A DNA stretch of 64,000 bases from Candidatus Zixiibacteriota bacterium (GCA_049694315.1 JBAVQU010000061.1:38796-102795); one strand, 5' to 3'; shown: positions 4,775 through 62,678, counted from the first letter of the stretch. Notes: generated by a model from the letters alone, not told the origin. Numbers and translations: made by a program.

Positions 4775-4793
4775 GTAACTACCTCCCTCATGG

Positions 4794-7493
4794 TTAGAAG
4801 ATAAACTCAATCCCCCAGCGGACCGTTCGGGGGACGTCGTAGTTTCCCGGGTCCTTGGCCAAAAGGCGATGATAGCGGTTCACGTCCTCAGCCGTCAACG
4901 GTCCATCTCCGTCAGGATCGGCGGTCAGTTCATAATGATAGCCGTCATCATCTGGCTTTCCGGTGTTGGAATAGACGTGCAGCACGTTTCTTCGGTCGAA
5001 GAGGTTTTCCACTTCGGTGAAGAGCGAAAAGTGCGCATCTTGTGATTTGAACAGGTACAAGTCCTTGTTGAACTTCAAATCCACCTGATAGGTAGCAGGC
5101 ATCCTGCCCTCATTCAAAGCTCCCAAGCGGTGTCCTTGATCGTCCGTCTTGGTGTAAGGCATGCCGCTCCCATACTTGGTCAGCACATCCAGTCCCCATG
5201 CTCCGGGCAGGGTCAGGCCCGCCAGCTTTCGTCCCCAGTCCCTGGGAACCCGGTAGTCTAAGTCTACCGTCAGAGTGTGGCGTTGGTCGAAGTCCAGAGG
5301 ATATTCCCTCACCGGCCAAACCGGGGCACTGGTGCCTTGGGTGAAGTAGTCGTAGTAACCCTCATAGGCCGAGGAGGCATTGCCTTTTGCTATCATGTAT
5401 GAGTAGTTGATCGTGCCGGAGAGGTTGCTGTGGTTGGGTCTTCGGGTGAGGATAACGTCCAATCCCTTTACCGTCCCGTAATCGGCATTGGTGAACTGGG
5501 TATAGGAGCCTCCGGCATAGACCACCTCGCGGGTGGAGGCCAGGTTGTTCAGGTCTTTGTAATAGGTGGTGACCTTCATGGTGATGTCATCGCTCAAGGC
5601 ATGGTTCACGCCTAGCTCGTAGGCTACACTCTTTTCCGCCTTCATGTCCGGGTTTCCCAGAAGAGGAAAACCGGTGGACAGGTCGGCCTGAAGATTGGTG
5701 AACATGTCCTGATAGGGCGGAACCTGGAAATAGTAGCCATAGCTGAAATGTATCACCGTCCGGTCGGAGATGGGATGGGAGACGCCCAGACGCGGGCTTA
5801 GCTGAGTTTTTGCCCTGGTGTGAACCATTCGATCCTTGGTCACCGGATTGCTCCAGTAATCGATGTCTGCGTTCACGTAGTCCAAACGAAGACCTGCGTT
5901 CACGATTATGTCCTTCAGCTCAAGTTTATCCTGCAGATACACGGCGCCGTAATCGGGATTGACCTGGTACTTTTCTCCGTAAGGCTGGGCATTGAAAAAC
6001 TGTTTGTCGTCCCATCGCAATTGATTGGCCCGGTACTCTCCTCCAAGTTTGACCTGGTTATGCTTGTCCATCTGGCTCATCACGTCGAACCCCAGACTGG
6101 TGTAACTAGTGCTCTGATAATGATAGGCCGGATAGAAATCGGGAGCAGCGGTGAAACCGGTGTAAAAATACTGCTCCGCCGGGTTATAGTTGTCGTCATC
6201 AATTGTGCCGATGTATACTCCGTTGGAGTCTTCCTGATACCCGGGCCATTGATTCCAATAGAGGTTGAAGAGATGCTCTGGAGCCTGCTTAGTCTCGGTA
6301 TGGAAATGGTTAACCTTTATGGAGTAGAAGGTATGGTTGGATGAGGGACAGGTGAGTTTCGCCCCCAAACTGTACGACTGATTGCGAACTTTTCCCAATC
6401 CGTTCAAATTGAAATCATAGGAGATGTTGTTGACGTCTCTGTGCACATATCTCAACAGGTCCCTTTCGTAGTAATTGCCGTTCAATACCAGCTTGAGGTT
6501 GCCGGCAGGTTGTAGGTTTATCTTTCCCGTTCCGGTGGAGATGTCTTTCCGGTTATGCGGAAGATAATCGTCATTCCAGATCTTCTCTCCGGAGAAGAAA
6601 AAGGTGGCCTTGTCGGTCTGCTTGAGGGTCAAGGGACCGCCCAAGTTGACAACCAGGGAGTTGTTGTCGTTTCTCTGGAGTCTCCCAAATTCGCCGGTGT
6701 TCACCTGGTAGGTGCGAGCCAATCCGTCGTAAGCCTTGATTTTTCCGGAAAAGACCGGACCTCCTTCCCGGGTGATCGCGTTGACCACGCCGGAGAGGGC
6801 CTCGCCGTACTCCGCCGTGAAACCTCCGGTACTGACGTCCAACTCCTCAAGGGCATCGGGGGAAACTCTGGTCCCCGGCAGCCCCACCAGCTGATCCTGA
6901 ATGCAAATGTCGTCCAAGAAATAGCTCACCGTGGCCTCACGTCCCCCGCGAACGTGGAGGTAGCCACGATCGTCTACCACCGTACCCGCCAGGTTGGATA
7001 TGACCGGCTGTATTCCGACCGAATTGGGAAGGTTGTCCAGCTGTTCCCTGATCACCATGTCGGTGGAGGAAGTCAGGTCCTTCTGGATCAGTGGACGGGA
7101 AGCTATCACCGTCACCCCTTTTTTCAGTTCAATCGGGGCCGATTTCAACTGAAAATCAAGGGGAGTGGTGAGATCCAGAAGCACGGTCACCTGAGTCTGG
7201 GTGACTGTCTGGTAGCCGATCAGCGAAGTCTCAACGGTATAGGTCCCCACCGGAACGTTCAGAAAAAAGTACTCCCCGTCCTCATCCGCAGAGCTTCCGA
7301 TACTAGTGCCTCTGATCATTATCGTCGCACCGGGCAACGGCTCCTTGGTCTCCGCATCTCGAATCACCCCGGCGATCTTTCCAGCCGTGCCCGCCAAGGT
7401 GACCTGATGAAAAATCAAGATAAAAAGACAGGCCAGCAAAACTGCTCTTAGGCCCAACCTGATCGTCCCCTTAGGATATGTCTTCGTGGTCAC
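4794..7493 (-). CDS. SusC/RagA-like TonB-dependent outer-membrane transporter with an N-terminal carboxypeptidase-regulatory-like domain, plug and 22-strand barrel
   Basis: The N-terminus 'GKIAGVIRDAETKEPLPGATIMIRGTSIGSSADEDGEYFFLNVPVGTYTVETSLIGYQ' is a CarbopepD_reg-like domain. It is followed by a TonB-box/plug region and ends '...RWGIEFIF' with a terminal aromatic. It starts on GTG with an AAGGAGG SD. It sits 19 nt upstream of cargo 1. Confidence 0.8.
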   Translation of the reverse strand: MTTKTYPKGTIRLGLRAVLLACLFILIFHQVTLAGTAGKIAGVIRDAETKEPLPGATIMIRGTSIGSSADEDGEYFFLNVPVGTYTVETSLIGYQTVTQTQVTVLLDLTTPLDFQLKSAPIELKKGVTVIASRPLIQKDLTSSTDMVIREQLDNLPNSVGIQPVISNLAGTVVDDRGYLHVRGGREATVSYFLDDICIQDQLVGLPGTRVSPDALEELDVSTGGFTAEYGEALSGVVNAITREGGPVFSGKIKAYDGLARTYQVNTGEFGRLQRNDNNSLVVNLGGPLTLKQTDKATFFFSGEKIWNDDYLPHNRKDISTGTGKINLQPAGNLKLVLNGNYYERDLLRYVHRDVNNISYDFNLNGLGKVRNQSYSLGAKLTCPSSNHTFYSIKVNHFHTETKQAPEHLFNLYWNQWPGYQEDSNGVYIGTIDDDNYNPAEQYFYTGFTAAPDFYPAYHYQSTSYTSLGFDVMSQMDKHNQVKLGGEYRANQLRWDDKQFFNAQPYGEKYQVNPDYGAVYLQDKLELKDIIVNAGLRLDYVNADIDYWSNPVTKDRMVHTRAKTQLSPRLGVSHPISDRTVIHFSYGYYFQVPPYQDMFTNLQADLSTGFPLLGNPDMKAEKSVAYELGVNHALSDDITMKVTTYYKDLNNLASTREVVYAGGSYTQFTNADYGTVKGLDVILTRRPNHSNLSGTINYSYMIAKGNASSAYEGYYDYFTQGTSAPVWPVREYPLDFDQRHTLTVDLDYRVPRDWGRKLAGLTLPGAWGLDVLTKYGSGMPYTKTDDQGHRLGALNEGRMPATYQVDLKFNKDLYLFKSQDAHFSLFTEVENLFDRRNVLHVYSNTGKPDDDGYHYELTADPDGDGPLTAEDVNRYHRLLAKDPGNYDVPRTVRWGIEFIF

Positions 7494-7739
7494 TTCTCAC
7501 CCCTCCTTTTTTGATAACGCCATGACTTGAGAACCTCTAAATCCCGTATAGTGGCCTCAGGATATACCTACAGAATCCGGGAGCTTCTGCATAGACACCC
7601 GGACTATTCATTTAGTCGACCTCCGCCGTCGGAACTTTAGCTGACAGATTCTGCCAGCCTGGGGCATAAACCCACGGGGCACTGACACGCCAGGTTACAA
7701 CTCATGCGCCCAATGCATAATGGCCTGACCATTGGCCCC

Positions 7740-22868: not shown

Positions 22869-23034
22869 GACCTGTGGGAAAAACATTGGGCCAGGACTTT
22901 GTTGCGCGGGCGAAACTCCAAGCATCTCCCCTATTGTGCTTTCTGATGAGCCCAGACGGGGAATACGGCGCGAAGCGAAAAGAGGACGAATTAGATACTC
23001 AAAAGCATCCATCTCAAAACAGGCTCTTTCTCGA

Positions 23035-24879: not shown

Positions 24880-24894
24880 TCGATTAGGGTCCCT

Positions 24895-25533: not shown

Positions 25534-25546
25534 GATTGGTCCTTTC

Positions 25547-29532: not shown

Positions 29533-29852
29533 GAAGGAATGTTTCTGCCGGTCCGGGTCTTGAGGAACGTTTTGTTTCGCGGTGGTGAACCCGGCTGGCA
29601 CGAAAGTCTGCTCGCCTTTTCGCGGATCGGCACTCTGGAGAGTAGAGATGGAAAGAGGTTCGGCATGATCGATTCACCGGGGAATGAAGGCTTTCCCCGA
29701 CTTTCGTCACACTTACACAGACCTGACGGGCCGGGCAGGAGCATCGAACGGGGCTTCGGTTCTCATGGGCTACCAATCTCAAGCAAATCAAACGCGGTAT
29801 TTTCGGGTTTCGGTTTGGAGATAAGTTGCGATACCGCAAGGAGACGGAAATA

Positions 29853-47913: not shown

Positions 47914-49032
47914 TCACAGCTTCCTTGCCACCTCTTCTGCCACCTCAGTCGTGGTGGCCTTACCTCCCATATCGTAAGTCCGCGCCTTTCCCTCTCTAAT
48001 GACTTCAGCAATCGCAGCCTCCAGAAGCGCGGCTTTTTGAGTCTCCCCCAGCCAATCCAGCATCAATTTGACGCTGAGAAGAGTGGCCATCGGATTGACC
48101 TTGTTCATTCCGGCATATTTGGGAGCGGAGCCGTGAGTCGGCTCGAAGACCGCATAATCGTCTCCGATGTTGCCGGAGCTGGCAAAACCCAGCCCTCCCA
48201 CCAACTGGGCGGCCAGATCGGAGATTATGTCGCCGAACATGTTGGATGTGACCAGCACGTCGTAATCCTGAGGGTTCTTGACCAGCCACATGCACATGGC
48301 ATCGATGTTGGTCTCCCATAGGGGAATCCCTGGATATTCTTTGGCAATCTTTCTTGCCTCCCGGATCATCAAACCCGAGGTCTCCCGGATCACGTTGGGT
48401 TTCTCCACCACCGCGACCGATCTTTTTCTGTGTTTTTTCGCATACTCAAAGGCATCCCGAACGATGTTCTGGCATGCTTTCCTGGTGATCACCCGTAAAC
48501 TCACCGCAATGTCTTCTAATGACGTATTTTCGAACTTCTTCATGCGGGCATTATGCTTGCACAGCACTGACATCACCTCGGAAGGAAGAGGATAAAATTC
48601 AACCCCGGCATACAAGTCTTCCGTGTTTTCCCTGAACACCACCAGGTCCACGTTCTCCCGATAGTTCAAGGGATTTCCAGGGTACGCTTTGCAGGGCCGG
48701 AGGTTGGTTCTGAGATTGAATAACTGACGCAGCTTGACGATGGGGCTGAAGTAGACGTACCCTTTGTCCCGGAGAGCGGGATCGATCTCCGCGTCCGCTT
48801 CTTCTTTGGGTTTCGAAGTTATGGCGCCAAAAAGACAACAGTCGGTTTCTCTCAAAAGCTCAATCGTTCTGTCGGGCAGTGGATTCCCCTCCTTGCACCA
48901 GAACTCCCAGCCGATGTCTCCGGGAATGTATTCCGCATCCAGCTTCATCTTATCCAAGACTATCTTGGCCGCATGCAGTACTTCTTTCCCGATGCCGTCT
49001 CCCGGCAGCCAGGCGATCTTGTACTTTTCCAT
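47914..49032 (-). CDS. Isocitrate/isopropylmalate dehydrogenase family protein (NAD-IDH or homoisocitrate/tartrate dehydrogenase type)
   Basis: It carries 'LPGDGIGKEV', 'LRQLFNLRTNLRP' and 'NMFGDIISDLAAQLVGGLG'. Confidence 0.8.
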   Translation of the reverse strand: MEKYKIAWLPGDGIGKEVLHAAKIVLDKMKLDAEYIPGDIGWEFWCKEGNPLPDRTIELLRETDCCLFGAITSKPKEEADAEIDPALRDKGYVYFSPIVKLRQLFNLRTNLRPCKAYPGNPLNYRENVDLVVFRENTEDLYAGVEFYPLPSEVMSVLCKHNARMKKFENTSLEDIAVSLRVITRKACQNIVRDAFEYAKKHRKRSVAVVEKPNVIRETSGLMIREARKIAKEYPGIPLWETNIDAMCMWLVKNPQDYDVLVTSNMFGDIISDLAAQLVGGLGFASSGNIGDDYAVFEPTHGSAPKYAGMNKVNPMATLLSVKLMLDWLGETQKAALLEAAIAEVIREGKARTYDMGGKATTTEVAEEVARKL

Positions 49033-49132: not shown

Positions 49133-50098
49133 CTAAAATGCAACCTCCAGTGAGATACAATGCACGTCGCCCAGGTCCGACTTGTAGGGAATATAGGCAT
49201 AGTCGATTCCGTACTTTTTGAACTTTATCCCCATTCCGAATGAAAGGTCTTTCTCATCGTAGCCGAACTGATAACCCAACCGCAGAGCCAGCGTCCGATA
49301 AGCGTCATACTCCAGGCCCAGATGCACTTTCGCGTTATCGTCTCTGGGCTTAACCAAATCCAAGCCCAAGGTCAGATCGCTTTGCCAGGCTTTCTTTTCC
49401 TCAAACCAGCTCACTCCGGCCTTGTATTGGGTGGGAAGCGAATACCACTCTTTCTCAAATCTCATTTTGGATCCCAAATTCAAAATAGCCGCTCCTACCG
49501 TCAGGCCTCTTAATGCCGATTGCCCCGCCTCAGCAAACGGAGAATAGATGCTCCCTACGTCGAAGGCCCATCCGTTGGATGACGAGATGTCTATCTTTTC
49601 GTACAGCCATTTGGCCGAGACTCCTGCGGCCAATTTCTTGGAAAGTGACCGGGCATAAGAAAGATACCCCTCCACGTCGTGAGCATCGAACAGGGCGACA
49701 GGTTCGACGGTAGGTACGTCACCCCGTTTTTCAATATCGGGAACTCGGCCCACAGATAGGCCAAGCCCAAAAGCACTTTTACCGGTGGCCATGGCCAAGG
49801 AAAAGTGCTCAGCGGTTATGTCCTGGAGCCATTGAGTGTGGGTGAAACTTGCCTCTGTCCCTCCCACCGAAGAGAGCGCTGCCGGATTCCAGAATGGCTC
49901 ACCCGCTCCCGCCGACTGGGCGGTATAAGCTTCCCCCATGCCCATAGCTCTTGCCCCGGCTCCGAGCTTAAGAAAGCTCAAAAGAGAAGTCCCGCTTTCA
50001 CCATTCTTGGCGCATACCGGTGAAGCCAGGAGCGCACCCAGGAAAACTACGATGACCACAGACGATATGGCCTTTCTCAATTCTGCTCCTTCGGTCAT
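49133..50098 (-). CDS. FadL/PorV-like outer-membrane beta-barrel protein (paralog P2)
   Basis: It has a signal peptide and the N-terminal motif 'GAGARAMGMGEAYTAQSAGAGEPFWNPAAL'. It ends '...ISLEVAF'. Confidence 0.6.
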   Translation of the reverse strand: MTEGAELRKAISSVVIVVFLGALLASPVCAKNGESGTSLLSFLKLGAGARAMGMGEAYTAQSAGAGEPFWNPAALSSVGGTEASFTHTQWLQDITAEHFSLAMATGKSAFGLGLSVGRVPDIEKRGDVPTVEPVALFDAHDVEGYLSYARSLSKKLAAGVSAKWLYEKIDISSSNGWAFDVGSIYSPFAEAGQSALRGLTVGAAILNLGSKMRFEKEWYSLPTQYKAGVSWFEEKKAWQSDLTLGLDLVKPRDDNAKVHLGLEYDAYRTLALRLGYQFGYDEKDLSFGMGIKFKKYGIDYAYIPYKSDLGDVHCISLEVAF

Positions 50099-50294
50099 TT
50101 CCTCAAGGATGGGTTAGGTCTCCACATCGTGTCGCCGACGTTATGATGGACGACCTCGACACCTCGTTCCTTCGTAGACTTAAGCTATCGAAACGAGCGC
50201 TGTCTCGAAAAAGTGCTTCAGTAGAAATTGTTTTCGGTTCTTTTGACCATCCACTTTATACGCCTGGCTTCCTTTTGCCAGTGCAGCGACCTTC

Positions 50295-51233
50295 TCAGAA
50301 CTCAAACTGTAGGGAGATCAAGTGGTCCGGGTCATCCTCCACCCGACTGGCGACAAAAGCATAGTCAAAACCCAGAACGGTCGAGCGAAGCCTATGCCTT
50401 AGTCCCAAACCCAGGGTCAGCGAACCTTTGTCATATCCGATTCTCCCGGCAACGTCTTGGAGTGCCCAGCCTTCCATCCCCAGATGAATCTTCGCTTTTT
50501 GTTTCTCGCTTTTGTCGATCTCCGAGGAGAGGAGTATCCTGTCCTTGAGCAGAAGATAAGAGGCACCGAGCCGTAGGTTTACCGGGAAGTTCTCCTTCAC
50601 CGAGGAACCCAGAAGATCAAACTGCTTCCAATACTCGCCCGACGTCCACGAAAACTTCATTCCCACATTCTCCACTGCCAGCCCCAGGCGCAGCTTAGGA
50701 ATCGGTCTTCCCATCACCGATGCCCCGAACCCGAGACCATAGGCCCTGATGTTGGCCAGATTGTACTGAATGTATTCCATCCCCAATCCTACCGAAAGCT
50801 GTTCCAGAATCTTCCGCCCGTAGAATAACTGGACCGCGTTCTGGTAGTTCGAGATCTCTTCGGTAACGTAACCATCGTTGTCTCTTCCCATCACGTCCCC
50901 CACCCCGGCATTGATCCATGCCAGTGCGATGGTCGCCTCGTCGCGAATCGGTTGATTGTAGATGGCGTAGCTTAGCCTTCGGTCCAGCGTCATCTTTCGG
51001 TAGAAGACGCCGAAACTCTTCTTGGTGATCTGCACCATGCCGGCTGGATTGAAGAATCCGCCGGTGGCGTCGTCCGCCACCCCTACAAAAGCTCCTCCCA
51101 TTCCCAAAGCCCTGGCTCCCACCCCCGGCTGCAGAAATGCATCGGCATAGCCTCCATCTCCGGTTTCAGCCAGAGCGGTGGAGGAAAACACAGCTAAGAC
51201 CACAAGCATTCGGATAGTAAGCATCTTGAGCAT
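50295..51233 (-). CDS. FadL/PorV-like outer-membrane beta-barrel protein (paralog P3)
   Basis: It carries the motif 'GVGARALGMGGAFVGVADDATGGFFNPAGM' and ends '...ISLQFEF'. The start was placed at the third ATG, which lies 6 nt after an AAGGAG SD. It is 38 nt downstream of the BNR protein gene. Confidence 0.6.
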   Translation of the reverse strand: MLKMLTIRMLVVLAVFSSTALAETGDGGYADAFLQPGVGARALGMGGAFVGVADDATGGFFNPAGMVQITKKSFGVFYRKMTLDRRLSYAIYNQPIRDEATIALAWINAGVGDVMGRDNDGYVTEEISNYQNAVQLFYGRKILEQLSVGLGMEYIQYNLANIRAYGLGFGASVMGRPIPKLRLGLAVENVGMKFSWTSGEYWKQFDLLGSSVKENFPVNLRLGASYLLLKDRILLSSEIDKSEKQKAKIHLGMEGWALQDVAGRIGYDKGSLTLGLGLRHRLRSTVLGFDYAFVASRVEDDPDHLISLQFEF

Positions 51234-51277
51234 TTGCATCTCCTTGTTTACCGCCTACTCCTCTGATGCCGCCAAAT

Positions 51278-53779
51278 CTACTTCAGAACGACCACCTTCC
51301 CCCACTCTACCTGGCCTCCCGGGGCTTCCATCTTGAAGAAATAGACTCCATTTGCGACCATGTTTCCTTTTTCGTTCTTTCCATCCCAGGCTTCATCATA
51401 TTCTGCGCCTCCGGACCGGGACTGGCCGTCTAACAAGGTTGTGACCAAATTCATGGCGAAATCGTATATTTTTATGCTGACCGGTCCATCCTGTCTGGGC
51501 CGATAGTGAATTCTGGTCACCTGTCCCCCTGCTACCACGGGAGAGAAAGGGGAAGGATAGGCGTAAGCGGTCTCCGATCCCTTCGATCCGATGGGGGCGG
51601 CCACACGGGTGACCTCCCACGAGGCGCCTTCATCCGCGCTCTTGACCAGACCCTCAGAGTTTCCCGCCCACACTTCACCTCCGATTATGGCCACCGAAGA
51701 GAATTCGGAGCTGTAAATTTTGTCTCCGGTGGGTGCGCTGTCTTGCATGTAATTGAAGACTCCCCAGCTACTTCCTCCATTGTAAGACCTCTTAAGTCCG
51801 GAGCCGGTAGCCGCCCAGACCACGGAGTCGTCAAAGGCAAAATTCCAAACCTCGTCCCCCAAAAGCGTCGTGCTCCAGCTGTCCCCGTCGTCGGTGCTGA
51901 AGCTGGCGCCATAATTACCGGAGTAAGTGGGCTGCGTAGCGGCCCAGATGACCTTTTTCCCGTTGTATTTTTGTATACCCAAGCCGACCACCCAATCTCC
52001 GGTCGTGCCGTTGACATAGGAATTGTAATTGAGCACGGTATCGGAGACGTCGCGATAATTGTATATGAATTTGTAAATTCCTGCCGCAGTTCCCGCCCAG
52101 ATGGCTTTCTTGAAGGAGGGAGCCAGCTTGGTCACCTTCCAGGTTTTGCCGTCATCGCTGGACTTGGCCAATCCATCTTCTGATCCGACCAATAGCGTGA
52201 TGGTTGAAGTGTCTGGCACCACACAGACCGAGGTGAAGTAAGAGGGAATGATAAGCTCTCCCGACGTGGAGTCAATGATTTCGAAGCTGGACCAGGATCC
52301 TCCTCCATCGGTCGATTTCTTCAAACCTTCGTGGGTAGCCACCCATACGGTGGAATCCGAAAAGGCAAAATCACGCGTCTGGATGTCGCTCAAATAAGTG
52401 TGCCAGGTTTGACCTTCGTCCGTGCTTTCATAATTCAGCGGGCTGGAAAGCACGAAGCCGCCCACCCAGACAACACTGTGGCCCGCCAAAGGCTGAACCG
52501 CCACCCGGACCACCTCGAAGGGTTCCACCGTTTCCTCATAGAGATACCGAATGACGGTATCGCCGGAATCGGTGCCGGTGTAAACGAACTTGTATAAACC
52601 GTCCTTCGTTCCCGCCCAGATAACCTTGGGATATGTCGTCGTCGGGTCGACGGCCAGGCTCGTGAAAATATCTTTATCCTCAAGTTGCCCCTGGTTGAAT
52701 CTTCTTTCGGCTGATGAATCTACAAAAACGCTATCCCAGGTTTTCCCCCGATCAGTGCTGCGAATTAAGCCTCCCTTTCCGCAAGCCGCCCATATGACGG
52801 TGTCTACCAAGGCCATGTCCAATGCGAACTCATCCAAGGAACCTGCCTGCCCTTGGGCTGGTCGGGAGGTGTCCCAGGTGGCACCATAGTTGGTGGTATA
52901 ATTGAAATCCGTTCCGGTCAGCGAAGGCAGAAGCGGCAGAGGGTGAGTTTCTTCCAGCTTGTATGACCCCGTCCAGAAGAACGAGCTATCGCCTGCCAGG
53001 CAAAAGATCCCGTTGGAGTTCAGTCCACTCGAAGTATCGAATGGGAAAAAGCTCTGTCCCGCATCTGCGCTGGTAAATAGACCATTCTCCGTTGCCACCC
53101 AAATCAATTTGCCATCATAAGCTATGTCGTTGACCGAGTTCTTTAGCCTTTTCTCCACCGGACACATGGTGTCAACGGCTACCGAAAAATAGCGGTCGTT
53201 CAAATAGAGATACTGTTCCTGCTCAAAGTCCAACCGGGAAAGCGAATCGACAAAAACGTTCTCCCAGTTCTGCCCGCCGTCCCGTGAACGAATCAGCCCC
53301 CCGTACCAGCAGGCCGCCCAAACTGTAGTATCGTCCAGGGCGATATCGTAAACCACCTTCCCCGCGAAATCCGTCTGCGTCGGAATGAACGAACCCCAGT
53401 TCTGTCCCAGATCACTGGTTTGGTTAAAGCCCTTCCCGTAAGGGATCACTTCCCCTTTGACCAGCTTGGTGTAGGATGCCGACAACCACAAGGTTCTTCC
53501 CGAGGCGGCCAATGCAGAGATATCGTTGGAGTTCAGACCAGTCTGTTGATTGTAAGTCACCCAGCTTGCGCCCCGGTCGGTGGTTTTGGATAATCCGTTG
53601 CCTGTCCCCACCCAGATGACGGTGGTGTCTCCCAACGTCATAAAGACTATGTCTCCGACGCTGTTGCTGGCAAATCCCGGAGATGGTGCATCCAAGCTGA
53701 GGCTCATCCCCTCCCAGGATTCGGCGGGAAAAAGGACTACGGTGAATACCAGGATCATCAGGAGCAGACTTCGTGTCAT
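51278..53779 (-). CDS. BNR/Asp-box repeat (sialidase/sortilin/Ycf48-like beta-propeller) secreted protein with a T9SS type-A C-terminal sorting domain
   Basis: It has at least nine 'S/T-x-D-x-G-x-T/S-W' Asp-box repeats, for example 'TDRGASWV', 'DGGQNWE', 'TDRGKTWD' and 'TDEGQTWH'. The CTD reads 'VSIKIYDFAMNLVTTLLDG...WDGKNEKGNMVANGVYFFKMEAPGGQVEWGKVVVLK'. An AGGAGG SD precedes the ATG. Confidence 0.75.
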   Translation of the reverse strand: MTRSLLLMILVFTVVLFPAESWEGMSLSLDAPSPGFASNSVGDIVFMTLGDTTVIWVGTGNGLSKTTDRGASWVTYNQQTGLNSNDISALAASGRTLWLSASYTKLVKGEVIPYGKGFNQTSDLGQNWGSFIPTQTDFAGKVVYDIALDDTTVWAACWYGGLIRSRDGGQNWENVFVDSLSRLDFEQEQYLYLNDRYFSVAVDTMCPVEKRLKNSVNDIAYDGKLIWVATENGLFTSADAGQSFFPFDTSSGLNSNGIFCLAGDSSFFWTGSYKLEETHPLPLLPSLTGTDFNYTTNYGATWDTSRPAQGQAGSLDEFALDMALVDTVIWAACGKGGLIRSTDRGKTWDSVFVDSSAERRFNQGQLEDKDIFTSLAVDPTTTYPKVIWAGTKDGLYKFVYTGTDSGDTVIRYLYEETVEPFEVVRVAVQPLAGHSVVWVGGFVLSSPLNYESTDEGQTWHTYLSDIQTRDFAFSDSTVWVATHEGLKKSTDGGGSWSSFEIIDSTSGELIIPSYFTSVCVVPDTSTITLLVGSEDGLAKSSDDGKTWKVTKLAPSFKKAIWAGTAAGIYKFIYNYRDVSDTVLNYNSYVNGTTGDWVVGLGIQKYNGKKVIWAATQPTYSGNYGASFSTDDGDSWSTTLLGDEVWNFAFDDSVVWAATGSGLKRSYNGGSSWGVFNYMQDSAPTGDKIYSSEFSSVAIIGGEVWAGNSEGLVKSADEGASWEVTRVAAPIGSKGSETAYAYPSPFSPVVAGGQVTRIHYRPRQDGPVSIKIYDFAMNLVTTLLDGQSRSGGAEYDEAWDGKNEKGNMVANGVYFFKMEAPGGQVEWGKVVVLK

Positions 53780-56202: not shown

Positions 56203-56232
56203 CGCAACTTACCTCCTCCAAGGTTAAATCCG

Positions 56233-59200
56233 TTATCGCACCACCGCGAATTTCCCGATCTTTTCTCCGTATGGCGAATCCACATGGTAGATGTAAACGC
56301 CGGATGCGATCTTCTGGTTGTTTTTGGTCAAAAGATCCCAGTTCTCGTTGCCGTCCAGATCCGCGCTGTTATGTTCCAAGGTGCGAAGAAGATCACCGGA
56401 CAGAGTATATATCCGGAGGGTGCATCTGTTTGGAAGGTGGGTGAAGGCGATCCGGGAATAATCCCCACTGGGCTCCCAGTTGTTACGAACGATGTAAGGA
56501 TTCGGCACCACCTTTATTCGATTCAAATCCACCTGGTTCGCTTCTATATGCTTCTCGTTAGTCTTGATCGTGAAGACATCCTCGTGCGTATTGGGTTTCC
56601 AGGTTATCAGCAGGGCATTATCTCCCTTGGCCCAGACCGGATCTACTTCATTGAAAGCAGCGCGGTAGTCCCAATCGTGTCGCGACATCGGTTTTGAGGT
56701 GTCGAGGCTCCAATAGGCGGCGTTGCCGGGATCATGATCGGGGTTGGAGAAGAAATCCTCCGCATAAGTGTTGCCGCTGGTGTTTTTGTCCAGAAGAATG
56801 ATGTAATCGTCGGTATGGAATCTCCCGTCTCCATAGAAGTCATACATCAAAGGCCAGATCCTGACGTCATCGCTGACGTCCTCGACGTTCGGACCCAGAT
56901 CCCAGACTTCAAAGGGGACGCTTATGTGGGTGGTATCTGCCCGGAAATGGCCCCAGGGAGTATTACCCTGAACGTCCCGATAGAACCCTTGAGCGGTGGT
57001 ATCCCCTGGACCAGCCACGAATTTGATTCGAAAATTCCTGAAGTCACCGTTTGCCAGAGCGTTCCTCCCGCCGATATAGACCTCGTTGAAGAACCAAGAC
57101 AGCCCATGAGAGTTCAATTTGGTCAGATCGGCGTTGAACCCCAATTCGGCCGGTCCCATCACCTTAAACACCATTCCGTCTACCACTGGGTAGTCGTTGT
57201 TCCCAGTCTGGTTGGCCATGTTATCCAACAACACTGTATCTGCGGTCACGTCCTTGAGATACCAGAGCAGTGGAATGTCTCCTTCATGGAACCCCACCTC
57301 ATACACATGTCCGGTGACCGCATCCGGCTGCACAGTCGTCACCTGCACCGTGCCATCGCTACTTCCAGGCGCGTGCGTCACATTGTATGCGCTTCCTTGG
57401 ACCAGTCCCGAGGCGTTAGAGCGGGGAGTGACCGCAACCGCGCTTATCCCGTTCTGGAGGCTACGGGGCGAAGCAAAGGGCTGGAAGTCGTAGGCCACCA
57501 CATCGTAGTAATAGGTCATTCCGTTGATCAGTCCGGTATCTACGTAAGAGTAGCCCAGTTGACTATTCGCACCTTCGGGCTCTTCCAGGTGCCCGGTGAT
57601 TTCAAATACGAGGTTATCGGTCGGCACGTACGAGGGATTGTCCCCCTTGAAATGGATCAGCATTCCGCCGAATAACAGATAACAGTCGTCGAAATAGTTG
57701 TCGTAAGTCCCATCCGCTATTCTTTCGGCGGTGCTTCGGCTCACGAAGAGAGTATCCCCTTCCAGAGAAAACACCTCAAAAAGATAAGGTGGCTCGCCGG
57801 GGGGTAACCAGTGATTCTCTTTTTTTGAAGGAGGAATGCCTACTCCGAGGGTCAGGTCAGTGACGGAAAAGGAGGTATCGGCTTTCACCTGCACCAGGTA
57901 CTGGTGGCCGGTAAAGAGTGACGTGGAGCCTTCCACCAGAATGTAGTTCTCCGTGTTCAACTCATCATAGGTGACCGCTCCGGCAAACGTGGGGCCGGAG
58001 AGTTGCTGGACATCGACGTGTCGCGGCGTCACACTGCTCTTGTCCCAGGAGGAGAGAAGCTCGAAGCTTCCGGGCAGGCCGGTGGTGCTTCGGTAAAGCC
58101 GGTAGCCTTCGAAGTCCATCTCTTTGTAGTTGGGATCATACAAGGGATTAGTGGGATCGCTGGTGAATTTGAAGTATGGATCTTTCGAGGACTCCGACGA
58201 GTTATCCCAGCCGATCAAAACCTTCTTGTCGTCGGGAACCACTGAGATGTTGGGCTTGTCCGGAGGACGGGGAAGGATGAATCCGATATCGTAAATCGAC
58301 TGGGCAATGTCGGCCACCCTGGGAAGCTGAACTCTGTCCGGAGCCATCATCACTGCCACTACAACCCTGACGGTGTCACCAACCACCGTGTCGATGCTGG
58401 CTATTTTCAGGGTGTCCGTGGATGAATTCCAGCTGTATACTGTGTCGACCACTGTGTCTCCCACTGCTGCCAAGAGGAATGGCCCGGTGTTCTGGAAGAA
58501 TCTTTGGTCATTCGGACTGGTTCCGCTTCCCAAATCGAAAGGAGCATAACGCTGGTCACCCGACGTCGGGTAGTTGTGTCCGGCCATGATCAGGAACTTC
58601 TCCGGCTCGTTCGCGGGATCACCCGACTCCAGATCCGAAACCTTGAAGGAGGTTAACCCCAGGGAATTTCCCCTTCTAACGTCTTTCACATAGACCCCAT
58701 TGCCGTTTACGTTCAGGGAATCGTCGCTGATCTGGTCATCACCGTTCAAATCCACGTCGTAAGTGGCCAGAGGGCTTTCCAGAAACTTGTAGGCTAAATA
58801 GCCCGGTATCCTGCCGAATCCCTGTTCGGCGTTGTCGCTGTCGTAGGCATACCCCAAATTCCGGGTCTTGTCAATGCCGACCAGATCGTCTCTGGCATTG
58901 GGCCCGATATCGGGATCGCACATGACCGAGACAAAGCAGTTCCTTATGGGTCTTTTGTCCTCTCTGATGTTTACGATCTGGTAGATGAAGAAGTGAATGG
59001 TCTTGTTGTTGTCGTAGTTCCAGGAGTGGGTGCGTTGTATCACCTTGACTCCCAAGCCGAATTTGGCAATGTCTTTTCCGTCTCCGGCGTTGGAGTTTAT
59101 GCCGGTGTCCCACCTTTCTGGGTCCTGATCGTCATACTCCGTATAGCTGTCTTCAATCCCAACTAATATCGGATTGTCGGCATTGTCCCGTAAGGGCCAG

Positions 59201-59718
59201 AAATTGGCGGCACTATAGTCCTCGGGGTGGTCACTGATGAATATGTCCGTGACTCCGGCGAATTCTCCGGCTCCGCTGCTGGGTTCATATCCCACCGCCA
59301 CCCGGGGGTCGGAGAGCGTTCGATAAAGAACCTCATCCCTGGTTGACCCCGAATTGTTGAAACTCAAGGTCTGTAGGCTGGGATTGTTCACGGTTCCCCC
59401 CACCCATAAGCCGGCGCCATAGATGTAAAACTCGTTGGTACCTTTGGGCCACTCTCCCCCTGCCGATCCCACGTCCACAAACTGCCCAAAAACAGAGTAG
59501 TTGGTCATGGGGATTCGGAAATCGTTGATGTCCAGACCATGCCTGATGTATCTGGTTTTGTTACTAAAGTGTTCTGTCTGGGCCATCTTTGCCAGCCGGG
59601 GGGAACCCTTCTGGCCCGCGGTTCGAGCTTGGTTTTCGGTGGGCAGCAGTGCAAATAGAAGGAGGAACAAGAAGACAACCCCGCCCGAGATTGCGCGTTT
59701 CTTAACGAATTTCTCCAT
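56233..59718 (-). CDS. Large secreted protein of unknown function with an FN3-like segment and a C-terminal T9SS type-A sorting domain (cargo 2, paralog of cargo 1)
   Basis: The start was moved to ATG 59718, which lies 7 nt after an AAGGAG SD and gives the signal peptide 'MEKFVKKRAISGGVVFLFLLLFALLP'. The CTD 'RIKVVPNPY...FTHLPNRCTLRIYTLSGDLL...GVYIYHVDSPYGEKIGKFAVVR' is near-identical in pattern to cargo 1. The N-region motif 'GGEWPKGT' is shared with cargo 1. Confidence 0.7.
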   Translation of the reverse strand: MEKFVKKRAISGGVVFLFLLLFALLPTENQARTAGQKGSPRLAKMAQTEHFSNKTRYIRHGLDINDFRIPMTNYSVFGQFVDVGSAGGEWPKGTNEFYIYGAGLWVGGTVNNPSLQTLSFNNSGSTRDEVLYRTLSDPRVAVGYEPSSGAGEFAGVTDIFISDHPEDYSAANFWPLRDNADNPILVGIEDSYTEYDDQDPERWDTGINSNAGDGKDIAKFGLGVKVIQRTHSWNYDNNKTIHFFIYQIVNIREDKRPIRNCFVSVMCDPDIGPNARDDLVGIDKTRNLGYAYDSDNAEQGFGRIPGYLAYKFLESPLATYDVDLNGDDQISDDSLNVNGNGVYVKDVRRGNSLGLTSFKVSDLESGDPANEPEKFLIMAGHNYPTSGDQRYAPFDLGSGTSPNDQRFFQNTGPFLLAAVGDTVVDTVYSWNSSTDTLKIASIDTVVGDTVRVVVAVMMAPDRVQLPRVADIAQSIYDIGFILPRPPDKPNISVVPDDKKVLIGWDNSSESSKDPYFKFTSDPTNPLYDPNYKEMDFEGYRLYRSTTGLPGSFELLSSWDKSSVTPRHVDVQQLSGPTFAGAVTYDELNTENYILVEGSTSLFTGHQYLVQVKADTSFSVTDLTLGVGIPPSKKENHWLPPGEPPYLFEVFSLEGDTLFVSRSTAERIADGTYDNYFDDCYLLFGGMLIHFKGDNPSYVPTDNLVFEITGHLEEPEGANSQLGYSYVDTGLINGMTYYYDVVAYDFQPFASPRSLQNGISAVAVTPRSNASGLVQGSAYNVTHAPGSSDGTVQVTTVQPDAVTGHVYEVGFHEGDIPLLWYLKDVTADTVLLDNMANQTGNNDYPVVDGMVFKVMGPAELGFNADLTKLNSHGLSWFFNEVYIGGRNALANGDFRNFRIKFVAGPGDTTAQGFYRDVQGNTPWGHFRADTTHISVPFEVWDLGPNVEDVSDDVRIWPLMYDFYGDGRFHTDDYIILLDKNTSGNTYAEDFFSNPDHDPGNAAYWSLDTSKPMSRHDWDYRAAFNEVDPVWAKGDNALLITWKPNTHEDVFTIKTNEKHIEANQVDLNRIKVVPNPYIVRNNWEPSGDYSRIAFTHLPNRCTLRIYTLSGDLLRTLEHNSADLDGNENWDLLTKNNQKIASGVYIYHVDSPYGEKIGKFAVVR

Positions 59719-59783
59719 GTCAAATCTCCTTTTCAATGATTCTTTGCTCTCACGTCAATGCTGGCTTCATGGTTTGATCACCC

Positions 59784-62678
59784 TCAGAATGCGATGTAGA
59801 AGCCGACACTGATCTGGCGAGGAGGTCCGTAGTTCATGGGGTCATTGACATACACGTCGTACGCTTTGCTGTATGCCGCGTATTGCTCCTCCGCACTGAT
59901 GACTCCATCTCCGTTCGTGTCCTTCACCTGGATCCAATTCCAGTACTGGTTGCTCACGTTTTCTCCCGGAGCTCCTATGGCCCCCGGATTTAGCCGATAG
60001 CCATCTTCGTTGGGAAGTCCGGTGGCCGGATAGACGTCCAGCACGTTGATCCGGTCAAAGAGATTCATTATCTGAACGAAGAAGTTGATTTCCCTTCCGC
60101 TGATCTTGAAACTCTTGTCTATGGTTAAGTCCGTGTCGTAGGTCCAGGGCTTGCGATACTCATTCGTGGTTCCGACCCGGTTGCCTCGGTAATCCCTTTT
60201 GGTGTAAGGAAGACCGCTTGACGCCTCGGAGACCACACTTATCCCGAAGTCCCGTAGAGCAGTGACTTCAAAATCAGTGGGAAACCTCCAATCGGCCTGC
60301 AGCTCAAAGCTGTGCCTCCGGTCAAAGTCTAACGGTTTCACGCTCGACGGGAAAACCCTCGGCAGTCCGGTTACCGGATCGGTGGCATCGCGGGAGTGGT
60401 ACTCATACTGGTCGTCTTCGTCCGAGTTGGTCCCTTCTGCATACTGAAGCACGTAGCTCAAATTGAAGGAAAGGTATTTTCGGGGCCGCTGGGACAAGGT
60501 CACCTCCATCCCCTTCACGTTGGCATAGTCTAAGTTCTTGAGCACGTCGTAGGGAGTGGGGGAGATGAAGATCCTTTGGTACTGCACCATGTTGTAAACG
60601 TCCTTGTAATAAGCCGCGACGTTGAACTTCATGTCCCGGCTTATGGCCCGAGTCAAGCCCAGCTCATACTGTATGTTCCTGCTCGGCTTCAATCCTGGGT
60701 TCCCCACTACCTGATTTCCCCTCTGCAGATTGGGATTCAGAGAGAGGTATAGGTCGTGGAAGGTTGGCTGTTGCGTGAAATGCCCGTAATTGAAAAAGAC
60801 GGTCATCTTGTCGGAAACCGGATGAGAAATTCCCAACCTGGGGCTGAAGGTTACGTCAGTGCTCACGGCTGAGTCTCTGGCTTCAGGGTGCAGATCCGGT
60901 CTGTTCGGGACATCGGTATCGCTGGGCCAGACTTTCGCGTCCTTGCTCAGGTAATCGACTCGGCCCCCGACGTTCACCACCAAGCCCTGAAATTCGATCT
61001 TGTCCTGAAGGTAAACGTCCCCCCCCACCGGGTGATAGGTGTAGACGTCTATGAAAGTCAAGGGATCCCAGGGAAGGCTGTTGTAATGTCTTTTGATGGT
61101 GTATTGGTTCAACTCTACCCCAGACTTGATCTGGTTGTGGAAGTTCACCTGGCTGGTGGCGTCCACTTTGTAGGTGTAAACGTCACTTCTCCTCGACTCA
61201 AACAGCCTGGTGTCGCCGTAAGAGTAGAACAGGCCGTTCACCGCCAGAGGGTAGTTCTGGTACTCCACCGCCTTCCGATATCTTTTCCAGTCGGTGGTAT
61301 CGGGCGACGGGTCGGCAAACTTGTAGTCACTCCACCAGTGTCCGTCCCAGACTTCATCCTTATGCTGGGAGATGAAGGCTTGCGCCAGATCCGGATCATC
61401 CGGATACATTTCGTTGGCGGTCCGTTCCAGGAAAGCTTGATCCAAGCGTCTGCCCGTGGTGAAGGCGTTGCTGAAGAACCCAAATTTGGCCTCATAGAAG
61501 GTGTTCTTGGAGACCGAGTGAGTCAAGGCCAGATAAGCCTGCCTGGCCTTCTCCAAGGTGCAGTCGTAACCCTCCAAATCGTAAAGATAAGTGTGATTAT
61601 ACCTCTCATATTGCCGCCGATTGTCAAAGCCTCCGGCGCGCAGGGTCATGGAAGGGGTAAGCTTAAAAGTAAGCTTACCTTGCGTGCGGTAGGTCTGCTG
61701 TTGGTGGTGAGGCAGCTCGTGCAGTCGAGGTCCCCAGTCATCGGTCAGATACAGGTTGCCGCTCAAATAGTAGCTCAGCTTCTCCTGTGTGCCCGGCACC
61801 GGTCCTGCCAGGCTCAGGAAGTGCTCATTGGTTCCGAGGTCATACTTATTTTCTAAAAGCTGGTCCGTGGAGTACTGATATCTTCCTGACAACTGGGCTC
61901 CACCCTCCTGGGTCACGTAGTTGACAATGCCGGACATGGCATTGCCGTACTCAGCATTGAATCCGCTGGTGATCAGCTGCGCCTCGGCAATGGTAAAATG
62001 ACTCAGATTGGTGGCCTGACCCGCCAGGATAGGGTCGGTGATGGACAGCCCGTCCACCATGTACACTACCTCTTCGGGGCGCCCCCCTCTCAAAGTTATC
62101 CCCGGATTGGCAGTGTCGGTCACCCGATTGCCTTCATTTCCAATTGCCGTGCCCACATTTCCCTGATTGATCGGTCCGCCGATGGGGTCGAAGACCACGC
62201 CCGGTGTCCGTTGAATGATTCCGTCCGAGTTGATAACCGGACGATGAATTATGTCTGCGGAGGTAACTATATGGGCGGTGGATGTTAGGTCCGGCTCGAA
62301 TATCGGTCTTTCCGCCGTCACCGTAACCCCTTTCATTTCCAAGGCCTGAGCGGACAAAGTGAAATCTACGGTGGTGGTTAGATCCAAAAGCACTTGAACG
62401 TTTTCCATCTCCACCGGAGTGTAGCCGATCAGGGTGGTTTTGAGCTTGTATGCTCCGGGAGGGACATTCAAAATGAAGTACTCTCCTTTTTCATTTGCTG
62501 CCGCTCCCATAGTAGTTCCCTCAATCACCACTGCCACCCCCGGGAGCCGCTCACCGGTATCCTTGTCCTTGACTATTCCTGCTATCTTTCCGGTGGTTCC
62601 AGCCTGCACCCAGGAACAGAGAACAAGGAACAGAATGCTCCAGGTGAGCACGAGCCTGAATACTTGTTTGCTTTTCAA
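59784..62678 (-). CDS. SusC/RagA-like TonB-dependent outer-membrane transporter (paralog of 4794-7493)
   Basis: The N-terminal 'GKIAGIVKDKDTGERLPGVAVVIEGTTMGAAANEKGEYFILNVPPGAYKLKTTLIGY' aligns residue-for-residue with TBDT 1. It ends 'VGFYIAF'. It starts on TTG 5 nt after a GGAGGAG SD. Confidence 0.8.
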   Translation of the reverse strand: MKSKQVFRLVLTWSILFLVLCSWVQAGTTGKIAGIVKDKDTGERLPGVAVVIEGTTMGAAANEKGEYFILNVPPGAYKLKTTLIGYTPVEMENVQVLLDLTTTVDFTLSAQALEMKGVTVTAERPIFEPDLTSTAHIVTSADIIHRPVINSDGIIQRTPGVVFDPIGGPINQGNVGTAIGNEGNRVTDTANPGITLRGGRPEEVVYMVDGLSITDPILAGQATNLSHFTIAEAQLITSGFNAEYGNAMSGIVNYVTQEGGAQLSGRYQYSTDQLLENKYDLGTNEHFLSLAGPVPGTQEKLSYYLSGNLYLTDDWGPRLHELPHHQQQTYRTQGKLTFKLTPSMTLRAGGFDNRRQYERYNHTYLYDLEGYDCTLEKARQAYLALTHSVSKNTFYEAKFGFFSNAFTTGRRLDQAFLERTANEMYPDDPDLAQAFISQHKDEVWDGHWWSDYKFADPSPDTTDWKRYRKAVEYQNYPLAVNGLFYSYGDTRLFESRRSDVYTYKVDATSQVNFHNQIKSGVELNQYTIKRHYNSLPWDPLTFIDVYTYHPVGGDVYLQDKIEFQGLVVNVGGRVDYLSKDAKVWPSDTDVPNRPDLHPEARDSAVSTDVTFSPRLGISHPVSDKMTVFFNYGHFTQQPTFHDLYLSLNPNLQRGNQVVGNPGLKPSRNIQYELGLTRAISRDMKFNVAAYYKDVYNMVQYQRIFISPTPYDVLKNLDYANVKGMEVTLSQRPRKYLSFNLSYVLQYAEGTNSDEDDQYEYHSRDATDPVTGLPRVFPSSVKPLDFDRRHSFELQADWRFPTDFEVTALRDFGISVVSEASSGLPYTKRDYRGNRVGTTNEYRKPWTYDTDLTIDKSFKISGREINFFVQIMNLFDRINVLDVYPATGLPNEDGYRLNPGAIGAPGENVSNQYWNWIQVKDTNGDGVISAEEQYAAYSKAYDVYVNDPMNYGPPRQISVGFYIAF

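Follow-up and report, generated by a model that had tools for sequence, protein, structure and literature searches.

[quoted passage not shown] The component closest to the protein described here is PorZ, which consists of two propellers and an uncleaved C-terminal domain (CTD), resembles BT4663 and is bound to PorQ (PMC8545088; PMC10947112; PMC10202324). In a second arrangement, that of type B CTD proteins (SprB-SprF and PG1035-PorP), an adjacent barrel anchors the secreted protein and may protect its CTD from cleavage (PMC10947112; PMC10202324). PorV is itself a FadL homologue, and the BAM machinery of Bacteroidota also includes a FadL-like barrel, BamG, along with a propeller surface lipoprotein, BamI (PMC12578637). 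In Rhodothermus marinus, an alginate utilisation locus is drawn with a TonB-dependent receptor, a T9SS sorting-domain protein and a PorV/PorQ family protein; the triad genes appear there as the uncharacterised 'hypA' and 'hypB' (PMC9530828).

A propeller gene followed by two barrel genes

The window, a stretch of 64,000 nucleotides, comes from a Candidatus Zixiibacteriota MAG and not from a member of the Bacteroidota. On the minus strand, an 833-aa ORF lies 38 nt ahead of P3, and P2 comes 196 nt further on, all in one orientation, in agreement with the ORFs and spacing proposed in an earlier inspection (referred to hereafter as the sequence-only reading). The operon encodes a Sec-exported protein with two propellers and a T9SS-type CTD, and then two barrels of the PorV/PorQ family, 14-stranded in the P2 model and by prediction in P3. 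No terminator-like site was found on the minus strand inside it. A phmmer search of all ORFs in the window identified exactly four paralogous barrels, P1 to P4, bearing out the claim of four PorV-like genes in 64 kb. P1 and P4 are part of a separate, widespread cassette comprising a TonB-dependent receptor, a CTD protein and a barrel. A CTD HMM, built partly from the CTD proteins of this same window, detected exactly three such proteins among ORFs of at least 120 aa, each directly upstream of a barrel. The features are as follows.

51278-53779, minus strand: secreted double beta-propeller protein of 833 aa ('BNR'; ORF, AF2 model)
52580..53662, minus strand: N-terminal propeller of this protein, about aa 40-400, six Asp-box-like motifs (motif count and AF2 model)
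51590..52522, minus strand: C-terminal propeller of this protein, about aa 420-730, seven Asp-box-like motifs (motif count and AF2 model)
51281..51565, minus strand: T9SS-CTD-like domain of this protein, FlgD_ig type (Pfam FlgD_ig, 32.1 bits)
50295-51239, minus strand: P3, 314 aa, outer-membrane barrel of the PorV/PorQ family (NF033709, 118 bits)
49133-50098, minus strand: P2, 321 aa, 14-stranded outer-membrane barrel of the PorV/PorQ family (NF033709, 183.2 bits)
55195-56202, minus strand: P4, PorV/PorQ-family barrel of cassette B (NF033709, 214.5 bits)
56233..59736, minus strand: X1167, CTD protein of 1167 aa ('X'), cassette B (CTD HMM, 77.5 bits)
59784..62678, minus strand: TonB-dependent receptor of cassette B (CarboxypepD_reg, Plug and barrel domains)
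853-1866, minus strand: P1, PorV/PorQ-family barrel of cassette A (NF033709, 248.1 bits)
2120..4810, minus strand: X896, CTD protein of 896 aa, X family, cassette A (CTD HMM)
4794..7493, minus strand: TonB-dependent receptor of cassette A

In cassette A, the X896 gene overlaps the receptor gene upstream of it by 17 nt.

Barrel genes are coupled to CTD genes

In all 23 loci examined, the gene immediately preceding P3 was the propeller gene, and P2 lay downstream of P3 in all 22 loci with room for it. All fetched Zixibacteria loci and one Zhuqueibacterota locus had the order propeller, P3-type, P2-type, and both order and orthology were kept in lineages only 30-33% identical. The neighbours of the operon are housekeeping genes in a fixed arrangement, with no other carbohydrate-utilisation genes nearby. 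The second cassette was similarly constrained: a metagenome scan yielded at least 477 confirmed relatives of the P1/P4-type barrel, and 52 of 54 barrels of this type in metagenome loci had a CTD gene directly upstream. Co-occurrence of CTD genes and barrels, a check proposed in the sequence-only reading, thus appeared as tight coupling when viewed from the barrels, but of 115 CTD ORFs across the loci that were fetched, 20 had no barrel, among them an S8 peptidase with a Por_Secre_tail in locus L005. The accompanying claim that every T9SS cargo has a private PorV is true within the window; given these 20 ORFs it does not generalise.

Our preferred reading, which we hold with slightly more confidence than doubt, is that the Zixibacteria operon encodes a PorZ-like T9SS propeller protein whose uncleaved CTD is docked on P3, the barrels being dedicated docks. 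The propeller protein would cross the outer membrane via the T9SS, and its uncleaved CTD would dock onto P3, the barrel encoded immediately downstream. This pairing is suggested by adjacency and by analogy with Porphyromonas gingivalis, in which PorQ holds PorZ and PorV holds PorU. Docking on P3 would keep the propeller protein on the cell surface, where it may act as a glycan-binding, PorZ-like component. PorZ itself binds A-LPS and supplies PorU. P2 would be the second barrel of the module, either a general PorV-like collector or a second dock. The barrels would be neither fatty-acid channels nor a random expansion, and P1 and P4 may be docks for a different family of CTD proteins that works beside a TonB-dependent receptor.

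It seems unlikely that the barrels are instead cargo-specific shuttles, which would pick up cargo transiently from the translocon and hand it on, the cargo being cleaved and released or attached elsewhere. PorV proper contacts the SprA/Sov translocon by an extracellular loop and carries type A cargo. PorV/PorQ family membership and genomic coupling fit shuttles equally well, and a shuttle function is described for PorV of P. gingivalis (PMC5562754; PMC10202324). However, the barrel-CTD pairs that have been studied (PorZ-PorQ, PorU-PorV and type B CTDs with PorP/SprF) are stable anchors whose CTD is uncleaved (PMC10947112; PMC10202324), a single general shuttle serves many cargos in the systems studied, and CTD proteins without a barrel of their own occur in these genomes.

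Docking of the CTD on P3 also invites comparison with SprB-SprF and PG1035-PorP, where the gene of a secreted CTD protein likewise lies beside that of its own outer-membrane barrel. The window differs in that its barrels belong to the PorV/PorQ family, not to PorP/SprF, and its CTDs, unlike type B ones, are of FlgD_ig type and carry type-A-like motifs. In the window, the propeller and barrel genes are adjacent in one operon, unlike porZ and porQ, which are not known to be neighbours in P. gingivalis.

The propeller protein resembles PorZ in architecture

The 833-aa protein has a signal peptide at about aa 1-22. It had been credited with at least nine canonical SxDxGxTW Asp boxes; nine repeats do have the DxGxxW core, but the strict motif occurs in only three. 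A relaxed Asp-box pattern matched 13 times, as compared with 0.23 expected in shuffles. The AF2 model (pLDDT 87.8, pTM 0.76) consists of two propellers and a seven-strand C-terminal beta-sandwich, the architecture of PorZ (two beta-propellers, then a beta-sandwich CTD). This architecture is not exclusive to PorZ, because GH74 proteins and BT4663 are similar.

[quoted passage not shown] It headed the PDB profile search (2e-19), followed by another hybrid two-component sensor (7e-17), and ranked first in Foldseek (E 2e-21). Unlike BT4663, the window protein lacks transmembrane and kinase parts; a secretion-type CTD forms its end, and barrels are encoded after it. PorZ (5m11) was the third Foldseek match (E 1.0e-20), in an alignment spanning about 955 columns; by sequence it was not significant in the PDB profile search (E 0.24). 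The NCBIfam PorZ model (NF052228) gave 27 bits over aa 701-817 only, below its full-length cut-off of 260 bits, and both the PorZ and the PorU models matched the protein only in the CTD region. Of the 46 members of the propeller family, 17 matched the PorZ model (best E 1.1e-11). The likeness to the PorZ-PorQ and PorU-PorV systems thus lies in a CTD-bearing surface protein with two beta-propellers and a C-terminal beta-sandwich, in 14-stranded FadL-superfamily barrels of the PorV/PorQ family and, by analogy, in the concept of a cognate barrel that holds an uncleaved CTD. The window proteins nevertheless score below every PorZ, PorQ and PorV equivalog threshold, and their propellers carry Asp boxes. 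Unlike PorZ, the family also has one-propeller versions: orthologues of about 490 aa, found in many lineages, lack the N-terminal propeller and retain the C-terminal one.

The CTD of the 833-aa protein passed the Pfam FlgD_ig cut-off of 27 bits. Its assignment to type A, put forward in the sequence-only reading, could not be established by HMM, since the type-A model TIGR04183 gave no match at E<=0.1. With the same model (cut-off 23 bits), X896 and X1167 scored 18.8 and 14.6 bits, respectively, both below threshold, and only three of the 46 propeller-family members matched TIGR04183 / PF18962. For X1167, the Pfam and PDB searches gave weak CTD matches and nothing else. In the AF2 model, the CTD of the 833-aa protein forms seven strands at aa 739-831 and lacks the additional hairpin described for the CTDs of PorU and PorZ, which are not cleaved. 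The domain does show PNP-like, GxY and C-terminal K motifs.

An ordinary GH74-like or sialidase-like enzyme, secreted as cargo to act on an external glycan and merely anchored by barrels with no role in secretion, is a rather improbable identity for the protein. Double propellers of the GH74 xyloglucanase type have a conserved catalytic aspartate pair located in the inter-propeller cleft. Asp-box propellers are present, GH74 structures were recovered by Foldseek at E values of about 1e-17 with the highest global TM (0.33, against 0.17 for PorZ/BT4663), and the fold E-values of PorZ and BT4663 are only about three orders of magnitude from those of GH74. The NCBIfam 'F510_1955 family glycosylhydrolase' model was also the top match of the protein (114 bits) and matched all 46 family members. 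This score is nonetheless under the cut-off of 175, and the GH74 sequence matches are at the level of the repeat, with 2e-9 in the PDB profile search against 2e-19 for sensor-type propellers. The gene is moreover phylum-wide, in a fixed housekeeping neighbourhood that lacks carbohydrate-utilisation genes. In this respect it behaves like a conserved component, unlike a variable enzyme cargo.

The four barrels belong to the PorV/PorQ family

The HMM comparison proposed in the sequence-only reading placed all four barrels in the PorV/PorQ family. The NCBIfam subfamily model NF033709 has a curated cut-off of 90 bits, which was exceeded by P1 (248.1), P4 (214.5), P2 (183.2) and P3 (118.0), and it matched all 19 members of the P3 family and all 40 of the P2 family. 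The equivalog models were missed: for PorV (NF033710, cut-off 250) P1 scored 125.1, P4 91.8, P2 81.4 and P3 50.5 bits, and for PorQ (NF033711, cut-off 220) P1 scored 117, P4 114.5, P2 75.9 and P3 64.2 bits. A TIGR03519 match was marginal for P4 and a PF11751 match weak for P1. In profile searches of the PDB, PorV of F. johnsoniae was the only significant solved relative of P1-P4 by sequence (E-values of 2.4e-24 for P2, 2.2e-20 for P1, 3.3e-11 for the P3 family and 1.4e-11 for P4).

The AF2 model of P2 (pLDDT 84) has 14 strands, the number that had been predicted, and its closest structural match was PorV, with Foldseek E-values of 1.2e-15 for 8gl6_F (TM 0.76) and 7.5e-14 for 6h3i_F and a TM range of 0.72-0.76. 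Short N-terminal helices (aa 40-77) precede strand 1. The P3 and P2 families align over their full length (hhalign, 99.96% probability, 298 columns), by which P3 is predicted to share the 14-stranded, PorV-like fold modelled for P2. P3 orthologues are 65-80% identical. The profile scores of the P3 family (best E 2.3e-23 with PorQ vs 1.4e-15 with PorV) lean towards PorQ.

It had been held that PorV and FadL could not be separated here from the sequence. In fact, PorV/PorQ and FadL can be told apart with sequence models, and we regard FadL/TodX-type channels for hydrophobic substrates, recruited beside surface proteins, as a very improbable identity for the barrels. FadL, TodX and OmpP1 share with them the 14-stranded barrel superfamily and an N-terminal G-x-G-A-R/NPA-type motif, and the GARA...NPAG signature noted earlier is indeed present in P2 and P3. 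A lateral opening (S3 kink) and an N-terminal hatch governing substrate passage characterise the FadL-type channels. The Toluene_X model (PF03349, cut-off 29.7) gave 31.1 bits for P4, just over threshold, 26.4 for P1 and 19.4 for P2, and FadL/TodX/CymD structures were the second-best fold matches of P2 (E about 1e-8). However, P3 had no Toluene_X match, and the matches of the other barrels were confined to the N-terminal stretch, about 80 of 421 model positions (30-111 for P4). FadL-type PDB chains gave E>0.5 in the sequence searches, as compared with 1e-11 to 1e-24 for PorV, and their Foldseek TM was 0.52-0.63. The barrels are also about 100 residues shorter than FadL, and lipid uptake leaves the near-obligate coupling to CTD genes unexplained. 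The FadL reading is unsupported, HMM, PDB sequence searches and fold ranking all favouring PorV and the 14-stranded P2 model being closest to PorV. PorV in the SprA-PorV structure retains its plug. Because PorV is a FadL homologue and keeps this element, an intact N-terminal plug cannot tell FadL from PorV.

That the genes encode BAM accessory components, like the BamG barrel, which has a conserved N-terminal extension, and the BamI propeller lipoprotein, is just as hard to credit: weak matches to NCBIfam BamG (NF053685; P4 31.5, P1 29.8 and P3 11.7 bits), BamG chains among the distant Foldseek matches of P2 and a BamI match in two of the 46 propeller-family members speak for it, but the BamG scores fall far short of the 250-bit cut-off, and instead of a lipoprotein signal the propeller protein carries a signal peptide and a CTD. 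BamI is moreover reported to be largely restricted to class Bacteroidia (PMC12578637), and neither bamA nor bamD is adjacent.

Receptor cassettes and wider implications

Cassettes A and B have the same three-gene order as the R. marinus alginate locus; the likeness is one of gene order, applies to P1 and P4 and does not extend to the P3-P2 pair. A broader and more speculative idea, which we put forward tentatively and think doubtful as it stands, covers Zixibacteria, Zhuqueibacterota and Rhodothermus as SusD-less relatives of Bacteroidota. In these groups, PorV/PorQ-family barrels might be a general means, hard-wired in the genome, of holding T9SS-secreted proteins to the outer membrane by an uncleaved CTD. 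In the receptor triad, the anchored CTD protein would capture substrate beside the TonB-dependent receptor, as a T9SS-dependent stand-in for the SusD lipoprotein. The propeller triad, a PorZ-like propeller with PorQ- and PorV-like barrels, might represent the attachment complex in its ancestral form, an operon.

An operon of a PorZ-like propeller and two PorV/PorQ barrels offers a compact, testable model of cognate CTD-barrel docking, and the cassette of receptor, CTD protein and barrel suggests a way in which SusD-less bacteria could link capture at the surface with TonB-dependent uptake. R. marinus, whose alginate locus has this gene order, is cultivable. For annotation, the barrels should not be labelled FadL, and neither 'glycosidase' nor 'PSII assembly factor' should be used for the 833-aa protein. 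GenBank already labels P2 and P3 'PorV/PorQ family protein', and its P2 entry (MGB8658760.1) starts six codons downstream of the ORF start used here.

Layout of the propeller operon and its barrels

The 833-aa Asp-box protein (the propeller protein), which ends in a C-terminal domain (CTD), is encoded in an operon with the outer-membrane barrels P3 and P2. The ORF positions matched exactly the three-gene layout and 38-nt gap described in a sequence-only reading of the window. When all window ORFs were searched by phmmer with the barrels, four paralogues and no more were recovered, in agreement with the four PorV-like genes counted in that reading.

Genes of the operon and the remaining barrels
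47914-49032, isocitrate/isopropylmalate-dehydrogenase-family gene, next after P2
49133-50098, minus, P2, 321 aa, 196 nt beyond P3
50295-51239, minus, P3, 314 aa, 38 nt 3' of the propeller gene
51278-53779, minus, propeller protein, 833 aa
853-1866, minus, P1
55195-56202, minus, P4

Proteins identical to P2 and P3 have GenBank entries (MGB8658760.1 and MGB8658761.1, respectively), from a 116,395-bp contig of a Candidatus Zixiibacteriota MAG; the P3 start is placed there 2 codons downstream of that of the 314-aa ORF. Both are titled 'PorV/PorQ family protein', a family-level annotation, yet the two proteins are uncharacterised and the logic of the operon is undescribed in the literature searched. 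Because the host is Candidatus Zixiibacteriota, the earlier comparison with PorV numbers in Bacteroidota is not directly applicable. A promoter and terminator scan was informative only in finding no terminator-like sites on the minus strand. The genes around the operon are housekeeping genes and, given this context and the conserved synteny described below, a phage, plasmid or other mobile origin was set aside.

The barrels belong to the PorV/PorQ family

All four barrels passed the 90-bit cut-off of NF033709, the NCBIfam model of the PorV/PorQ subfamily, while none reached the equivalog cut-offs for PorV (250), PorQ (220) or PorV2 (325). In searches of all PDB sequences, the sole significant match of each barrel was Flavobacterium johnsoniae PorV (6H3I chain F).

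Scores of the four barrels (NF033709 bits; E-value to PorV)
P1: 248; 2.2e-20
P2: 183; 2.4e-24 (family profile)
P3: 118; 3.3e-11 (family profile)
P4: 214; 1.4e-11

The sequence-only reading had kept FadL-type channels as an alternative and had held that sequence could not separate them from PorV. The two were in fact separated by NF033709, by the PDB searches, in which FadL-type chains appeared only at E>0.5, and by Pfam Toluene_X (FadL), which matched only the N-terminal motif region (19–31 bits) and did not match P3. P2 was modelled with AlphaFold2 from an alignment of 40 sequences (pLDDT 84, pTM 0.80), and the model has an N-terminal short-helix segment followed by 14 long strands, the number anticipated for such a barrel. 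When this model was compared with the PDB by Foldseek, PorV came first (8GL6_F, E 1.2e-15, TM 0.76; 6H3I_F, 7.5e-14), ahead of FadL, TodX and CymD (~1e-8, TM 0.52–0.63). The FadL reading thus found no support in the Pfam, NCBIfam, PDB sequence and fold searches and was rejected. An intact plug, proposed earlier as a mark of FadL channels, does not discriminate between the two, since PorV too is homologous to FadL (PMC12578637). A role as BAM accessory proteins, prompted by weak BamG and BamI matches and by PMC12578637, was rejected on the scores and the signal type.

The P3 and P2 families aligned over their full length in hhalign (99.96% probability, 298 columns, 24% identity), and P3 therefore shares the fold of P2, as judged from this alignment. 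The P3 family leans to PorQ (best E 2.3e-23, vs 1.4e-15 for PorV), while the P2 family shows no clear lean to PorQ or PorV.

The propeller protein resembles PorZ in architecture

The description of the 833-aa protein as carrying at least nine canonical Asp boxes was essentially right, if slightly generous: nine have the DxGxxW core, three fit the strict SxDxGxTW pattern and 13 fit a relaxed pattern, as compared with 0.23 expected by shuffling. Pfam identified BNR, PSII_BNR and FlgD_ig (32.1 bits, above cut-off). Among NCBIfam models, an Asp-box 'glycosylhydrolase' model was sub-threshold, and the PorZ and PorU models matched only the C-terminal region. The AlphaFold2 model (46 sequences; pLDDT 87.8, pTM 0.76) consists of three parts, the last of which is a CTD-type sandwich.

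Parts of the AlphaFold2 model
about aa 40-400, first propeller
about aa 420-730, second propeller
aa 739-831, seven-stranded beta-sandwich

PorZ comprises two seven-bladed propellers and an uncleaved CTD-like sandwich and is BT4663-like overall; its ligand is anionic LPS, and the PorQ barrel keeps it at the cell surface (PMC8545088; PMC10947112; PMC10202324). A profile of the propeller family, run against PDB sequences, matched the BT4663 sensor domain (4A2L, E 2.3e-19), 3V9F (7.3e-17), GH74 enzymes (2e-9), the PorU CTD (1e-4) and, at E 0.24, PorZ (5M11). By Foldseek the model retrieved BT4663 first (E 2.4e-21) and PorZ 5M11 third (1.0e-20), and GH74-like folds were nearly as good as PorZ (~1e-17). 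Global TM was low throughout (0.17–0.33) because domain orientations differ. The modelled architecture and fold class thus match those of PorZ, whereas its sequence does not suffice to place it in the PorZ family. A true PorZ-like function is conceivable, with the balance tipped somewhat against it.

The gene order propeller–P3–P2 is conserved

Conservation was assessed in 18 GTDB species-representative loci, together with loci fetched by exact protein look-up. Orthologues of all three families were numerous, being 65–80% (P3), 55–70% (propeller protein) and 51–68% (P2) identical to the window proteins. The propeller gene was immediately upstream of P3 in all 23 loci and P2 was downstream in all 22 with room for it, followed in 17 loci by the dehydrogenase gene. 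Gene order was unchanged in orthologues of only 30–33% identity, where the P3 profile scored best on the second gene and the P2 profile on the third. Shorter forms of about 480–495 aa, consisting of the C-terminal propeller and CTD, are found in some lineages (e.g. L005, 8498-9982), Zixibacteria among them, with P3-type and P2-type barrels still downstream. A Zhuqueibacterota contig (L002) likewise carries a one-propeller form (482 aa, 7224-8672) followed by P3-like and P2-like barrels. We conclude that the operon is conserved in the manner of a functional module and does not look like variable cargo served by an expanded family of shuttles.

Several Zixibacteria genomes carry a metallo-beta-lactamase-fold gene (~275 aa, HHHxDH motif) between P3 and P2 (L008, 9406-10245; L019, 9099-9926). 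On the Zhuqueibacterota contig, the P2-like barrel is followed by yet another barrel-like gene, the third, which encodes 479 aa (Pfam TraF_2; 11242-12681), and a 382-aa unannotated gene directly adjoins the propeller gene at its start. CP070839, a Zixibacteria genome record labelled complete, was considered as a case of P2 split from the propeller gene and P3. In CP070839.1 (L109, 2552167-2559871; L001) the P2–dehydrogenase pair lies ~1.4 Mb off, behind unrelated genes. Because the propeller gene is cut off by the end of the record, this case provides no evidence either way on linkage; the separation is probably not real but due to a break or mis-join in the assembly.

P1 and P4 belong to receptor cassettes

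P1 and P4 lie in two paralogous three-gene cassettes, in which a TonB-dependent receptor (CarboxypepD_reg and Plug) is followed by a large CTD protein of a family termed X and then by the barrel.

Cassettes and X proteins
853-7493, minus, cassette A, with P1
2120-4810, minus, X protein, 896 aa, fold unknown
55195-62678, minus, cassette B, with P4
56233-59736, minus, X protein, 1167 aa, fold unknown

A metagenome scan with the P1/P4 profile confirmed at least 477 relatives among the 600 matches listed, and gene context was counted in 80 loci kept from it. Where more than 3 kb lay upstream of the barrel, a CTD/X-family gene was its direct upstream neighbour in 52 of 54 cases, and one of the other two is an ORF-calling artefact; the second upstream gene was a TonB-dependent receptor in 41 of 46. 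The cassette is thus widespread in metagenomes. In six loci (L079, L084, L086, L091, L099 and L108) an extra CTD gene precedes the receptor, giving the order CTD, receptor, X, barrel. X is a dark family, always placed between receptor and barrel: Pfam searches with 28 members and a profile search of the PDB gave only weak CTD and Fn3-like matches. Its invariant residues are spread over about 1100 alignment columns (alignment A5).

The alginate locus of Rhodothermus marinus, a cultivable organism, is drawn with the same receptor–CTD–barrel order; the latter two genes, hypA and hypB, are labelled hypothetical there (PMC9530828). In some Porphyromonas, PorV/PorQ and T9SS-domain genes stand beside heme-uptake loci (PMC12106395). 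That barrel-anchored CTD proteins serve as partners of TonB-dependent receptors, with the operon as an ancestral attachment module, is a speculative and rather unlikely proposal.

Coupling of CTD proteins to neighbouring barrels

An HMM built from the CTDs of the propeller family and of the two X proteins detected three CTD proteins in the window, those of 833, 896 and 1167 aa, each with a barrel directly 3' of its gene. The earlier proposal of PorV-like barrels coupled to cargo stands in both respects, by NF033709 and by conserved gene order. Its extension to a private barrel for every cargo fails beyond the window, where 20 of the 115 CTD ORFs in fetched loci lack a barrel, for example an S8 peptidase with Por_Secre_tail.

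A review has proposed that 'cognate PorV-like beta-barrels' shield CTDs from cleavage, PorQ doing so for PorZ and PorP/SprF for type B cargo (PMC10202324). By analogy, the propeller protein would be exported by the T9SS, and its CTD would be kept and would dock on P3 as PorZ does on PorQ, with P2 as a putative second, PorV-like barrel. We slightly favour the view that the barrels are dedicated docks for the neighbouring CTD protein. If so, the cognate-barrel principle would extend to adjacent PorV/PorQ-type barrels in another phylum. In the literature searched, no paper linked Zixibacteria to PorV, T9SS or type IX secretion; a 2024 paper names further FCB phyla that may possess a T9SS, Zixibacteria not among them (PMC11285876).

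Other genes of the window

Elsewhere in the window, an unusual 1035-aa fusion (29826-32933, plus strand) joins a Peptidase_MA_2 domain to PD40/TolB-like propeller repeats and ends in an Omp85-type barrel at its C-terminus. Three consecutive plus-strand ORFs (22936-26116; 647, 212 and 215 aa) gave no Pfam match at E<=0.001, and a 454-aa ORF (20616-21980, plus strand) combines a TatD-type DNase/hydrolase (aa 2-252) with a radical SAM domain (aa 271-438).
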